A stretch of 64,000 nt of DNA, taken from the IMG/VR virus record IMGVR_UViG_3300028186_000155. The stretch is one strand, 5' to 3'. The translations under genes were made by a program, and so were the position numbers. The stretch comes from a virus (taxonomy: Duplodnaviria > Caudoviricetes). This document shows, piece by piece, positions 1,044-47,952 of this stretch. How positions within the stretch are numbered: position 1 is the stretch's first letter; each line of letters starts with the position of its first letter. The notes beneath the pieces are model-generated. The model had not been told where the DNA came from. It saw only the letters and a list, made by a program, of their open reading frames with translations, and searched no databases.

Positions 1044-1113
1044 ACAGCCCCTTGTTAGTTAATGGTCGCGACCTTAAAGATCGCTCCCTATTAAATTACT
1101 GCCTACAAGGTAT

Positions 1114-1124
1114 GTTTACAGTTT
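1114..1124 (-). promoter_or_regulatory. AAACTGTAAAC motif copy 1 (putative phage promoter)
   Basis: exact 11-mer, essentially intergenic, followed by SD-occluding hairpin. Confidence 0.65.
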
Positions 1125-16747: not shown

Positions 16748-16926
16748 TACAACACCTTTTGCAGAATTTGTTTGATGATGTGAACAGTTGCGAACATGCC
16801 GACCGCCATGTGCATCGGGGTCAACTGGTGCCAATAGGTTTTGGTGCGCCAGCCGTGGAACAGGTAGAAGCCCGCGAAGCTATACATGCCGTACAGCAGC
16901 CACCGCCAGATATCCCAGTCATCCAT
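16747..16926 (-). CDS. 59-aa membrane peptide (not in ORF track)
   Basis: MDDWDIWRWLLYGMYSFAGFYLF...; fills the gap with overlaps at both ends. Confidence 0.65.
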   Translation of the reverse strand: MDDWDIWRWLLYGMYSFAGFYLFHGWRTKTYWHQLTPMHMAVGMFATVHIIKQILQKVL

Positions 16927-17446
16927 GATAATAAAAATCCATGCGCATCTGGCTATGGTTCACGCACAGGTCGATTATTTCAGAGCGCTTTTTGCCTTTG
17001 AAGCTATCTCGGAATTCTGTGAGCATGCGGCCCATCGCGTCTGCACCTTTCCCATCGCGCCCGGTGCCCCAGTCCTTATCCCAATCGGCTTTGTGCACCA
17101 ACCGCCCTTTGGTTTCCAGTAGGGCTAACAGGCGGATAGGGTTTTGCAAATACGCTTCACGAATCGCGATTTTCATCGTGTCGTAACGCTTCGATTTTTG
17201 ATCCTTGCGTTCCTTGCCCTTCGCCTTGGGGCCGCCGAAATGTTTGGCCTTGTAGGGATCAAAGGAATTTAGGATTTTGGTGCGCAGTTCTTTTTCGCTC
17301 GGGTCCAGCGAATAAAACTGGTACATGTGTTCGATGGATTTGAACAGCCGTTTCTTGTAGAAAAACGGCGAGGGCCACATCGCGCTCCACATCGGATTTT
17401 CATACGAGTTAAATTCGATGATCGGTACAGTCGTTTTCTTCGCCAC
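16919..17446 (-). CDS. NADAR (YbiA-like) family protein
   Basis: S..WPSPF, SIEHMYQ, P..AK..G, QNP..L..LLET, D..WG.G.DGKG...MG.ML...R. Confidence 0.9.
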   Translation of the reverse strand: MAKKTTVPIIEFNSYENPMWSAMWPSPFFYKKRLFKSIEHMYQFYSLDPSEKELRTKILNSFDPYKAKHFGGPKAKGKERKDQKSKRYDTMKIAIREAYLQNPIRLLALLETKGRLVHKADWDKDWGTGRDGKGADAMGRMLTEFRDSFKGKKRSEIIDLCVNHSQMRMDFYYHG

Positions 17447-18401: not shown

Positions 18402-19289
18402 TTATTGTGCGCAATCATCTTGATCATCATCGTCGCATTCTTCGAGGTCGTAGCCGTAGCCAGCCTCTGCGAAATAATCCTTGCTGATTTCGTCTTGTTC
18501 GGTCAGTCCGTTGAGGTGATCAACGAACAGTTTGGTCCAGTTTTCGAACTTCACACCCGGATAGGTTTCGTACAGCTTTTGGGCCGCAACTGGCGGAATG
18601 AAATCGACGCCTTTTTCACGATTGCCTACCGTCACTCCGTCTTTCAGACGCAGACGCCACGCGATAGCCAGATGCAGACGGCCTACGTTGTCGCTATTGT
18701 CGAAAATCAGGCCTTCGAAATGCAGGGTTGCCAAATCCGCCAGATCATCCAGCGTGGCAGTCAGCCGTTCTTTCGCCGTGCCTTCTGCCCGGTAGGCGCT
18801 GAATTTTTCACCGTGAACGAAGAACGTCATTTCTTCGAATGCTTCGCGCATGATGTTTTGCAGAGAAGTTTCCAGCAGGTTCGGAATACTGGTATTGCGG
18901 TGTGTTACAGGGTCGCGCAGATAACGCACGTCCACCGCGTCGAGGTGGCCGCCCGGCATGCCCGAACCTTTGCCTTGCAGATCGGATTCGCCGTTGCCTT
19001 CACGTGCACGCATGTAGGCGTTCAGTTCCGGCAGGTAATGCGGCGTACCAGCCTGCTCTACCGTGAAGTAGTTCAGCCATTGCGCGTAATCGCGGTTGCC
19101 TTTGAACGATTCGCCCCAGTGCAAAGATTCGTCAAGGTCTTCGCGCTGGCCAATGATGAACCCGCGACGAACCAAACCGGAGAATTGTTCCCAGTCCACT
19201 TTTACGAAGCCGGTTTGACCCATGCCGAGTTGCGGAATGTCACGCAGAACGGTGCGGCGAATCGCGCCAATGAATTCTGGATATTTCAT
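18402..19289 (-). CDS. Nudix-fold phosphoesterase (YmaB/COG4112-like)
   Basis: Y.R....GES.L.G..S...GGH, REAFEE, D..VG.LH, ENW. Confidence 0.8.
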   Translation of the reverse strand: MKYPEFIGAIRRTVLRDIPQLGMGQTGFVKVDWEQFSGLVRRGFIIGQREDLDESLHWGESFKGNRDYAQWLNYFTVEQAGTPHYLPELNAYMRAREGNGESDLQGKGSGMPGGHLDAVDVRYLRDPVTHRNTSIPNLLETSLQNIMREAFEEMTFFVHGEKFSAYRAEGTAKERLTATLDDLADLATLHFEGLIFDNSDNVGRLHLAIAWRLRLKDGVTVGNREKGVDFIPPVAAQKLYETYPGVKFENWTKLFVDHLNGLTEQDEISKDYFAEAGYGYDLEECDDDDQDDCAQ

Positions 19290-19297
19290 GTTGGTTC

Positions 19298-19353
19298 CTA
19301 GATACAGGGCGGCCCCCTTTGGACCGCTCGCCTGTACCTAGTGTTTACAGTTT
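19298..19353 (-). promoter_or_regulatory. AAACTGTAAAC motif copy 6 (19343..19353) plus SD-occluding hairpin
   Basis: CTAGGTACAGG/CCTGTATCTAG 11-bp stem plus 7-bp inner stem; 3' arm includes the AG of SD AGGA. Confidence 0.7.
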
Positions 19354-19356
19354 TAC

Positions 19357-19848
19357 TTAGTCGCCCAGTCGAGTGGACATGGAAGCGCAACGGAAACGCA
19401 CGTTATGCCCGTTCAATGCGTCGGCCATCGCATCACTGGTTTCAACCGAGAACGGAACCACCATTCCGGCCCCCGTGGTGCAACCCAGCTTGAACGTGCG
19501 TTGCAGATCAGCATAAATCCACAGCTGCTGCTCCACCGGCAAATTGTCAGAAATATTCTGAACCATTGTCGATATTTGTTCCGGGGTTTTGCCTGCCAGA
19601 TCGGGAACCATCAAACGCTGGCCGAACTGCTGGTAACGTTGCAACATCCCTTCACCGTCATCCACGATTTTTTCGAGACGTTCCAACAATTGCGCTGGCG
19701 TGGATTCATCGTGCAGATACAGCAAAACCGTGTTGGGCACATCCCATGCAAAATACAGGTCGGCAAACAGGGTCATTAACACCGCGTTGGTGGCACCTGC
19801 GCCCGGTTGGGTAACACCAACGATGATTTCAGGTTTTACGTTTTTCAT
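19357..19848 (-). CDS. degenerate RecA/DnaB-fold P-loop protein
   Basis: IIVGVTQPGAGAT (no Walker A Lys); VLLYLHDESTPAQLLERL. Confidence 0.7.
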   Translation of the reverse strand: MKNVKPEIIVGVTQPGAGATNAVLMTLFADLYFAWDVPNTVLLYLHDESTPAQLLERLEKIVDDGEGMLQRYQQFGQRLMVPDLAGKTPEQISTMVQNISDNLPVEQQLWIYADLQRTFKLGCTTGAGMVVPFSVETSDAMADALNGHNVRFRCASMSTRLGD

Positions 19849-27587: not shown

Positions 27588-27604
27588 TGTACCCATGGAA
27601 ACTT

Positions 27605-27703
27605 CCCTTAATCCGTGAGGGTGTAGGTAACAGGCAGCAAATGCCCAGCCACCAATCTGACAGACGGTCGCCCATCTGTCAACACTTGCCCACGGATCAA
27701 GGG
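27605..27703 (-). ncRNA. candidate multi-stem cis-regulatory RNA
   Basis: 15-bp outer stem, GCGA-capped 10-bp hairpin and a third stem; wobbles are G-U only on the minus strand. Confidence 0.5.
27654..27682 (-). promoter_or_regulatory. sigma70-type promoter within an inverted repeat
   Basis: TTGACA-N17-(TG.)CAGATT; TGACAGATGG-GCGA-CCGTCTGTCA inverted repeat. Confidence 0.6.
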
Positions 27704-27765: not shown

Positions 27766-28245
27766 TTAGGCCGGGTCAACCCCTGCACCGGCTTCCTTGG
27801 CGTGCTCCAGCTTGGCCGCCACCTGCGCCAGTTGAACCACGGTGTATTGCTCGGGCGACATGAGATTGGCCAACCCGGCGTCAATGGTGAACCACTCGCG
27901 CTTGCGCAATTGGAACTCTTCCCAATCGCAATAGGAAGCGAACGAAGCGCGGAAATAAATCTCGCGCTGGATCTTTGCCGGGTGATCGTCGGTTGCTTCG
28001 TAGGACAATACTTCGTCGTAAATCTTTTCACGCAGGAAAACTTCCATGCCTGCCTCTTCACGGGTTTCCTTCTGCGCGTTTTGTGCCTCGGTCAAACCTT
28101 CCTCCAAACCACCTTTGGGCAAAACCCACAGGCCGGGGAATTTCAGTGACGTGACCAGCAACACTTTATTGGTATCGTAGGAAATGACGGCAACGCCGGT
28201 AGCGGTGCGGCTATAGTTCAGGTCTTCAGATTTAACGACGTTCAT
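27766..28245 (-). CDS. Nudix hydrolase, DIPP/Ap6A-type
   Basis: WVLPKGGLEEGLTEAQNAQKETREEAGM; WEE..LRKREWF. Confidence 0.9.
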   Translation of the reverse strand: MNVVKSEDLNYSRTATGVAVISYDTNKVLLVTSLKFPGLWVLPKGGLEEGLTEAQNAQKETREEAGMEVFLREKIYDEVLSYEATDDHPAKIQREIYFRASFASYCDWEEFQLRKREWFTIDAGLANLMSPEQYTVVQLAQVAAKLEHAKEAGAGVDPA

Positions 28246-28953
28246 TTAGCAGTCTCCAATGTAATCAGTAACGAAGGGTCCGAAATTGCGGTTGAGCGCA
28301 TCACGCAAAGGCTTCACGCAACGCACCACAAAGCCAAAATCTTTCAGGTCGAAATAAAGTTCGTAGGGCACGGGGCCTGCCATATTCCACAGCTTCACAC
28401 ACTGGTTAATCAGTGCGATGCGGAATGTGTGGTTGCCTCGCAGGTGCATGTAGCCTATGGCCGTCATGTGATTGATAGTATCGTGCACCGCCTGTTCTAC
28501 AAGCCGAATGTATTGGCGAACATGCGCAGAGTCCAACGGATTATATCCATTGTCTTTCAGGATGCTGCGAAGCCGGTCTACACTATTTCCGACGTTTTCG
28601 ATGATGGATGCAACGACCACCAAATCAAACATGGGCATAGCGTGGCCGGATTCCACGCTGGGGCAAACCACCGCACCAATCCCCGGATACATGTGAAAAA
28701 ACGACCAACCATTTCTGTCTAATTGGTCCCTCACCGCTTTCGTCAGGTAACGCGGCCTTTCTGACCAATACATCCGAAATTCATCACGCTTCCAGCCATT
28801 CGACAAATAATGCATGATGGCTCGATTGAACAGAATTTGTGAATCTGGCTGTTCTTTGATCGGCACCAAAAACCCCATACCGCGTTCGACCTTGTGGGCC
28901 AAACACTCTTCTAGGTCGAAAGAGATTTTGTACAGCGGAATAGACAAATTCAC
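28246..28953 (-). CDS. hypothetical protein
   Basis: GTGA-coupled; tiles operon. Confidence 0.7.
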   Translation of the reverse strand: MNLSIPLYKISFDLEECLAHKVERGMGFLVPIKEQPDSQILFNRAIMHYLSNGWKRDEFRMYWSERPRYLTKAVRDQLDRNGWSFFHMYPGIGAVVCPSVESGHAMPMFDLVVVASIIENVGNSVDRLRSILKDNGYNPLDSAHVRQYIRLVEQAVHDTINHMTAIGYMHLRGNHTFRIALINQCVKLWNMAGPVPYELYFDLKDFGFVVRCVKPLRDALNRNFGPFVTDYIGDC

Positions 28954-34344: not shown

Positions 34345-34597
34345 AGCCGTTGATCAGGCTTTCTTTGACGACGGTTACTGCATCTTTTTTGGAGTCGCTA
34401 CGGCGCGTAATTTTCACGTCGTCTTTGCCGTCCATATAGGCAAAGCCCTGCGTCTCGAAATAGCGGTCGCGCACCCGTACACACGTGGCTTGATCGGGGA
34501 ATGGTTGCATGCCCTGTGCAACACTAGGCACACCCACATTGAGCGGCGCCTTGAAGCTAACCAGCGTGAAGAGAATTGCGCCTGCCCAATTATCCAT
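34307..34597 (-). CDS. hypothetical protein (MDNWAG...)
   Basis: tiles operon. Confidence 0.6.
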   Translation of the reverse strand: MDNWAGAILFTLVSFKAPLNVGVPSVAQGMQPFPDQATCVRVRDRYFETQGFAYMDGKDDVKITRRSDSKKDAVTVVKESLINGFAVTYTCVDTTE

Positions 34598-34847
34598 TTT
34601 CCGAAACCACCAGATCCACAGTGTATCCAAGGTTAGCGGCGAACATCACCAGCCGGGCGAACGGAATGTTGCCCTTGCCGCTAACCACCGAGTAAAGGTC
34701 GATCTTCGAAATGTCGTACAGCTTCTGGATTTCCGGTGCCTGCAAACCGAGTGTCATCAGCTTGGCTTGGCATGCAGAAATCAGCTGCGCCTGCATTTCT
34801 TGCACCGCGATGCGGCCACGGTCCAGATCAACTTTTTGCTTTGCCAT
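34590..34847 (-). CDS. XRE-HTH-like protein
   Basis: LQAPEIQKLYDISKIDLYSVVSGK...RLV.FA..LG; AAGGA SD. Confidence 0.65.
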   Translation of the reverse strand: MAKQKVDLDRGRIAVQEMQAQLISACQAKLMTLGLQAPEIQKLYDISKIDLYSVVSGKGNIPFARLVMFAANLGYTVDLVVSENG

Positions 34848-35208
34848 ATTGAATTCCTTGAAGTTCCTGTAAGAGACGTATGTGGACGGTTTCGAGTCGT
34901 TCGCCACATATATCGTTTACAGTTTTCAGGAAGTCTTGCAATTCATCCAGTACCGTGAGGATTTCCACCGACAGGTCGGACCAGCGTTGATTGCCGCCCA
35001 GCGTCAATTCCAATTCAGGCCTACGTGTTAGGCCGGGGATAGAATGGCGCACGTGAGTTTCGTCAACATCGATTTGAGAAACGGCGAAACTTTCACGCGA
35101 TACGTGCACCTTGTGGCGCAGAACGGCAACGCGGCGGAACAGTTCCTGTGCGTAGGCCTGCCGTTCCATTGGCATCATGTCCTCGATTTCTTTCCGGCTG
35201 TATCTCAC
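34828..35208 (-). CDS. hypothetical protein
   Basis: GTGA-coupled. Confidence 0.65.
   Translation of the reverse strand: MRYSRKEIEDMMPMERQAYAQELFRRVAVLRHKVHVSRESFAVSQIDVDETHVRHSIPGLTRRPELELTLGGNQRWSDLSVEILTVLDELQDFLKTVNDICGERLETVHIRLLQELQGIQYGKAKS
34915..34925 (-). promoter_or_regulatory. AAACTGTAAAC motif copy 7
   Basis: exact 11-mer 67 nt upstream of the HTH gene; shares downstream GATA with copy 2. Confidence 0.55.
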
Positions 35209-47865: not shown

Positions 47866-47952
47866 CAAACTTCCTTAATTGCGTGAGTGTGAATGTAACG
47901 GCCATAGCAAAGGCCAGCCGCCACACTACCATTCGTCGGGTTGCCTTGTCAA
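47866..47952 (-). promoter_or_regulatory. sigma70-type promoter and leader homologous to 27599..27682
   Basis: TTGACA-N18-(TG.)TAGTGT, then GGCGGCTGG..TTTGC..GCC GTTAC..CTCACG..ATTAAGGAAGTTT. Confidence 0.7.

Follow-up and report, generated by a model that had tools for sequence, protein, structure and literature searches.

In bacteriophage T4, hairpins at the ribosome-binding sites of e, soc, 49 and I-TevI silence long early RNA, and a late promoter located at the 5′ arm of the hairpin releases translation (PMC3014915). On early RNA the hairpin cuts T4 lysozyme synthesis 100-fold, and Aeh1 mobE and T4 segB belong to the same group of promoter-released hairpins (PMC3014915). Two further systems are relevant to the locus described here. 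The gp36 promoters of phiEco32 (tAATGTAtA) consist of a single A/T-rich element with a TGTA core and no −35 element; they are served by a phage sigma factor and start 6–8 bp downstream of the element (PMC8948821). In addition, 5′-terminal stem-loops block the action of RppH and RNase E (PMC8833179).

Here we analyze the leader of a Nudix-fold hydrolase gene in a Lu11-like jumbo phage. As in the T4 genes, the Shine-Dalgarno (SD) sequence is predicted to lie in a helix on read-through RNA, in part (the AG of AGGA), and a gene-proximal phage promoter has a predicted start that removes the inhibitory 5′ strand. There are several differences. The promoter, TGTAAAYA, looks like a middle promoter, whereas the T4 promoter is the late TATAAATA (gp55); since TGTAAAYA precedes replication units and a separate motif precedes baseplate and tail-region genes, this would be a T4-like lock but not the T4 late-gene case. 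The controlled gene encodes a Nudix hydrolase rather than a lysozyme, nuclease or capsid protein. Finally, pairing covers only half of the SD, and the short RNA retains 12 of the 18 base pairs. We favor, with a probability of about 0.6, the reading that the leader is a translation lock opened by a promoter, on the model of T4 e, soc, 49 and I-TevI, shifted to the early-to-middle transition and possibly combined with protection of the RNA 5′ end. The leader element itself is real and conserved, and probably functional.

Genome context

The window, the whole 64-kb stretch of DNA that was analyzed, is part of a 195-kb virus record. Among named viruses it is closest to Pseudomonas phages HRDY3 and Lu11, and the virus is a Lu11-like jumbo Pseudomonas phage of the Lu11/PaBG group. 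Phages of this group encode sigma factors (PMC7412058), and a 343-aa open frame in the present genome matches sigma70 region 2 (sigma70_r2). Promoter motifs, start signatures and early cassettes were compared across four genomes: this one (G000), HRDY3, G001 and Lu11.

The genes around the leader are on the minus strand. A co-oriented gene of 163 aa (19357..19848) ends with its stop codon just before the promoter motif and is followed by the Nudix-fold gene (18402..19289, 295 aa). In nearly all orthologous loci retrieved, the Nudix gene is followed, two to five genes further on, by a NADAR gene (16919-17446 here, minus strand).

A stable hairpin overlaps the Shine-Dalgarno sequence

The leader, on the minus strand, reads exactly as given in a preliminary description of this DNA. 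An 18-bp hairpin (19298-19341) lies between AAACTGTAAAC and the Nudix gene. It consists of an 11-bp outer stem (5′ arm at 19331..19341, 3′ arm at 19298..19308) and, at 19309..19330, a 3-nt bulge that leads into a 7-bp inner stem capped by a 5-nt loop, for which both the predicted fold and covariation speak. The SD, AGGA (19296..19299), is located 6 nt before the ATG (at 19289), and its AG forms the last two bases of the outer 3′ arm. The pairing of this AG by the base of the stem, as first proposed, is borne out by the fold, in which the other two of the four SD bases are unpaired and the full stem ends 8 nt before the AUG. With a predicted energy of −29.9 kcal/mol (z −5.4), the fold was matched in stability by none of 200 shuffled sequences and by none of 194 control gene leaders of the same genome.

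Two other identities were considered for the hairpin and rejected. An intrinsic terminator would require a U-tract after the stem; there are 0–2 T in the 8 nt that follow it in all 15 hairpin-bearing orthologous leaders, and the site is absent from the terminator scan. A covariance model of the hairpin matched only orthologous leaders plus one borderline sequence, so the hairpin is not a member of a repeated family. Rfam covariance models gave no match to the leader up to an E value of 10.

The upstream motif is probably a middle promoter

The motif upstream of the hairpin occupies 19343-19353 within the putative promoter element AAAACTGTAAACA (19342..19354, minus strand), which places TGTAAAC at about −14 to −8. 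The window holds eight exact copies, all on the minus (coding) strand, and a looser pattern, WAMTGTAAAH, occurs 38–50 times per complete related genome versus 5–7 times when reversed; the exact motif is rare in PaBG (5 sites). The proposal that the motif acts like a promoter gains support from the Lu11 GenBank record, which marks it as a putative middle/late promoter. One of the marked copies (JQ768459.1, 234364-234379) has the same position before Lu11_0292, the orthologue of the Nudix gene. The Lu11 record annotates neither a start site nor a hairpin, and the hairpin that we find in Lu11 leaves the SD free.

In Lu11 the motif stands at the start of units that include the genes for primase, topoisomerase, DNA polymerase I, RecA and thymidylate synthase, and a separate motif, RTAATTTWA, precedes baseplate and tail-region genes. 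Because one motif stands before replication genes and the other before virion genes, TGTAAAYA is probably a middle promoter and not a late one. Since exact matches to RTAATTTWA exceed those to the reversed control by little, it is the location of the motif, and not its frequency, that supports the late class. The two motif types stand back to back between divergent units at 108926 (+) and 108956 (−) of this genome, a pair whose position corresponds to that of the junction between thymidylate synthase and baseplate genes in Lu11, near 175200. Together with the early cassettes described below, this yields a working model of three promoter classes: early TTGAC cassettes, middle TGTAAAYA with +1 at the eighth base after TGTAAAY, and late RTAATTTWA.

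We infer that the middle motif is read by a phage sigma factor. In this it would resemble the single-element phiEco32 promoters, although that phage belongs to another family and its consensus differs. At two sites of this genome outside the window (genome positions 165016 and 136404, minus strand) the motif is followed by a hairpin with a U-tract, an SD and a start codon; these are candidates for a promoter overlapping a terminator, an attenuator or a short RNA.

A predicted start inside the 5′ arm would free the SD

The position of the transcription start was predicted from base composition downstream of the motif. Across 149 sites in the four genomes, the eighth base after TGTAAAY is A at 103, G at 32, T at 14 and C at none; in this genome alone, A stands there at 21 of 28 sites (p 9e-8). 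A codon artefact was rejected as the cause of the bias, since it is strongest outside continuous reading frames, where the eighth base is a purine at 83/86 sites and the seventh a pyrimidine at 66/86, and since control motifs with one mismatch are flat and lack the purine/pyrimidine signature. A pyrimidine followed by a purine is the usual initiator pattern, and the position of the signature fits the 6–8 bp spacing of the phiEco32 promoters. For the Nudix leader the predicted start is the A at 19335 (minus strand), which follows a T. It lies inside the range 19331-19342 that had been anticipated, one base beyond the expected distance of 4–6 nt from the motif. A literature search found no start-site mapping for Lu11 or PaBG phages.

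With a start at 19335, the first six bases of the outer 5′ arm (19341-19336) would be present only in read-through RNA. Their loss lowers the predicted cost of opening the SD from 4.8 to 0.1 kcal/mol, and that of opening the −16..+10 region from 16.4 to 7.8 kcal/mol. When 194 control genes were cut at an equal distance, only 4 showed as large a drop for the SD and 1 for the −16..+10 region. The result is tolerant of the exact start: 5′ ends from 19339 to 19334 are all predicted to free the SD, and those at 19341-19342 are not. The predicted short RNA retains a blunt 12-bp hairpin (−18.8 kcal/mol) with its first base paired, so the idea that a start at this place would free the SD yet leave a 5′ hairpin holds in the predicted folds. 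The retained stem ends 14 nt before the AUG, and opening −20..+13 still costs 13 kcal/mol; with a stem this close, release is probably partial and the ON state may be modest.

An early cassette is the likely source of read-through RNA

A lock of this kind requires RNA that enters the leader from upstream. In support of the original reading, an early-type promoter was found 8.3 kb upstream, as a sigma70-type cassette (27597..27682, minus strand) with TTGACA, a 5′ hairpin, a CTCAC box and an SD. An equivalent cassette is present upstream in HRDY3 (8.7 kb), G001 (8.8 kb) and Lu11 (9.5 kb). No motif site lies between cassette and Nudix leader, and the intervening ~8 kb contain only three weak, non-conserved terminator candidates, although early RNA may still be lost there. 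It is therefore likely that RNA reaching the hairpin from upstream is early, and the cassette at 27682 is its likely source.

Early cassettes of this type, which combine a hairpin at the 5′ end with a conserved leader, CTCAC...GGAAGTTT, occur at 27597-27682 and at 47887-47952 (both minus strand), and several copies are found in Lu11, HRDY3 and G001. In the 27682 cassette an inverted repeat covers the −35 to −10 region and could be an operator. A further predicted hairpin of ~17 bp (28293-28328, minus strand) lies near the end of the gene at 28246-28953, upstream of a third Nudix gene.

Proposed mechanism

The lock would work in four steps. First, early RNA initiated by the host sigma factor at the cassette near 27680 would run through the packed genes into the leader. 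Second, the full 18-bp stem, as predicted by folding and supported by covariation, would pair half of the SD and reduce ribosome loading. Third, judging from the positional signature, polymerase with the phage sigma factor would start at ~19335 inside the 5′ arm, so that the six SD-proximal base pairs could not form. Fourth, the SD would be free, and the 12-bp hairpin, its first base paired, should make the 5′ end a poor target for RppH and RNase E. In this last respect the predicted short RNA resembles the 5′-terminal stem-loops mentioned above, except that its stem is what is left of a longer stem beginning upstream of +1. The net effect would be that the Nudix hydrolase is made mainly from its own promoter, around the time of the replication genes.

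The mechanism is already known from T4 and would not surprise a phage specialist. If the reading is correct, a control device documented in T4-like phages extends to the Lu11/PaBG jumbo group and to an early-to-middle switch, and it controls an uncharacterized Nudix enzyme whose timing matters enough for six lineages to keep the arrangement in unrelated sequences.

Conservation of the leader and competing explanations

Motif and hairpin are both present in 15 of 19 distinct orthologous leaders; that of HRDY3 hardly differs in sequence from the leader described here. The other four (L026, L030, L032 and L015) form one clade, lack promoter and hairpin, and abut the upstream gene. The 15 hairpin leaders represent about six lineages, between which the hairpin sequences are unrelated; the lineage count comes from a tree used for this purpose only, in which the labels L005-like, L006-like and L015 were assigned to protein rows by likeness. 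In all 15 leaders the predicted +1 falls inside the 5′ arm, with 3–18 pairs upstream of it, and the distance from stem end to start codon is 3–17 nt on the long RNA and 14–26 nt on the short RNA.

Within the nearest clade, all scored alignment cells pair, and 8 of the 18 pairs show two-sided changes, in an alignment that was fitted to the structure and comprises seven related leaders plus one weak non-orthologous match, which gives 1 of the 8; the accompanying shuffle test ignores kinship. In the six pairs upstream of +1 the bases have changed but pairing is preserved, and it therefore appears that the long RNA form is under selection. The arm upstream of +1 is partly promoter sequence, which is a second possible cause of conservation there.

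Occlusion of the SD is less widespread than the hairpin. In 8 of the 15 leaders, drawn from three unrelated lineages, the predicted cost of opening the SD falls by 2 kcal/mol or more; in the other seven (Lu11, L024, L027, L029, L031, L004 and L005) it hardly changes. In Lu11 the SD is free with or without the full stem, and the −16..+10 cost changes by 0.4 kcal/mol. Masking of the SD can thus not be upheld as a general rule for these leaders.

The seven leaders that keep a hairpin over a free SD lend weight to a less probable reading, in which the main role of the hairpin is to stabilize RNA, acting as a 5′ stem on its own mRNA and/or as a barrier or 3′-end stabilizer of the upstream early message, and its overlap with the SD is incidental. 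A residual hairpin is found at or near the 5′ end in 13 of the 15 predicted short RNAs, the early cassettes of these phages also begin with hairpins, and neither RppH nor RNase E can act unless two or more 5′ bases are unpaired (PMC8833179). A pure 5′ stabilizer, however, needs no pairs upstream of +1, and yet every leader has them. Moreover, L008, L025 and L028, in which the 5′ arm takes in promoter sequence as in the T4 gene e layout, lose most of the stem when the RNA begins at +1 (a residual of about −4 to −5 kcal/mol) and have the SD covered on the long RNA. Both observations speak against stability as the main role.

That the full stem can form only on read-through RNA would also suit a mechanism, unlikely in our judgment, in which the long stem ends or cleaves that RNA (by factor-dependent termination, by pausing or as a site of the RNase III type) and thereby uncouples the gene at the level of RNA and not of the ribosome. 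A hairpin and U-tract directly follow the motif at the 165016 and 136404 sites, and PaBG, whose more distant relative of the Nudix gene is PaBG_00060, has, just before the Nudix promoter motif, a strong hairpin with runs of A and T at its flanks (L080:2346-2456). The PaBG hairpin appears to be a terminator, of the bidirectional type, that would also cut the Nudix gene off from read-through, and in this sense it counts in favor of the lock as well. Against termination or cleavage at the hairpin leaders, the U-tract is missing from all 15, and stem length varies between 7 and 23 bp, without a loop or bulge common to the lineages. At the lower end of this range the stems seem too short for RNase III.

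Least of all do we expect that the inverted repeat acts as DNA, as an operator or cruciform bound by a regulator: it does overlap the predicted +1, but the lineages share no sequence, the covariance model found no second copy in the window, Lu11 or HRDY3 beyond one borderline match, and in 15/15 leaders the sense strand gives the more stable fold of the two strands, with G-U pairs in 14/15, which favors RNA on the coding strand.

The predicted switch is not specific to Nudix genes

The leader had originally been paired with that of a second gene as a dedicated system that delays nucleotide-hydrolyzing enzymes by a promoter switch. The second gene, Nudix-1 (522-1043), is recognized by the Pfam NUDIX model, and its leader (1044..1124, minus strand) has the same motif, with a late-type GTAATTTAA embedded in it, and an anti-SD arm that is moderately conserved. 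The predicted lock at Nudix-1 is weaker: SD opening is 3.3 versus 1.2 kcal/mol, and the arm is not part of the minimum-energy fold here.

A dedicated Nudix system is contradicted by two other genes. The motif is absent before Nudix-3 (27766-28245). Conversely, a gene that is not a Nudix gene and belongs to no known family (85 aa; 34590-34925, minus strand) has a motif-plus-hairpin leader (34848..34925) with a comparable predicted SD switch, seen in three genomes. The opposite generalization, that the switch is a property of the promoter class, was rejected as well: over 74 motif sites the SD effect gave p 0.18, and the wider region gave p 0.03 for a slight effect among orthologues that are not independent. 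Most motif sites show no predicted SD switch.

In the Nudix-1 leader a late-type GTAATTTA lies ~25 nt after the middle motif and is kept in Lu11 (218588-218605), HRDY3 and G001, which suggests tandem middle and late promoters.

The regulated protein has a predicted Nudix fold of the TM1382 type

The 295-aa protein is missed by the Pfam NUDIX model (PF00293), receives no name from Pfam or NCBIfam, and falls in PHROG 8902, of unknown function. Its AlphaFold model (pLDDT 86) matches TM1382 (3e57) with a Foldseek E value of 1e-10 and a TM-score of 0.87 by target at 18% identity, and nearly all of the remaining top matches are Nudix-fold proteins. Among 27 homologues there is no variation in GGH-x-D or in the three glutamates of the Nudix helix (E149, E152 and E153), in a Nudix box that carries an insertion. 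The name "predicted NUDIX family phosphoesterase" is attached to two homologues, the PaBG relative carries a Nudix hydrolase annotation, and the wider family numbers 1673 representatives. [quoted passage not shown]

We take TM1382 and Bacillus subtilis YmaB to belong to the same COG (COG4112), which would make the phage protein YmaB-like. YmaB is encoded in the nrd operon, and a preliminary dNTP pyrophosphohydrolase activity has been described (PMC5960316). In phage nickie a relative of the Nudix protein sits between dihydrofolate reductase (DHFR) and thymidylate kinase, and these neighbors, together with the presumed kinship to YmaB, hint at a role in nucleotide pools. Unlike TM1382 and YmaB, the phage protein is longer and has insertions, and its conserved neighbor is the NADAR gene; the constancy of this neighbor would also allow a role in ADP-ribose metabolism (PMC7824862). 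A literature search did not find TM1382 mentioned together with Nudix.

It would be surprising if the enzyme attacked RNA 5′ ends in the manner of RppH or a decapping enzyme and sped the decay of host messages, with the hairpin silencing the early RNA and making the enzyme's own mRNA resistant through its blunt 5′ stem, and with the hairpins of the early leaders protecting phage RNA likewise. The same Nudix type also occurs as the N-terminal part of a 633-aa protein with LysM domains at its end, gp286 of Burkholderia phage FLC9 (L081:1489-3390).
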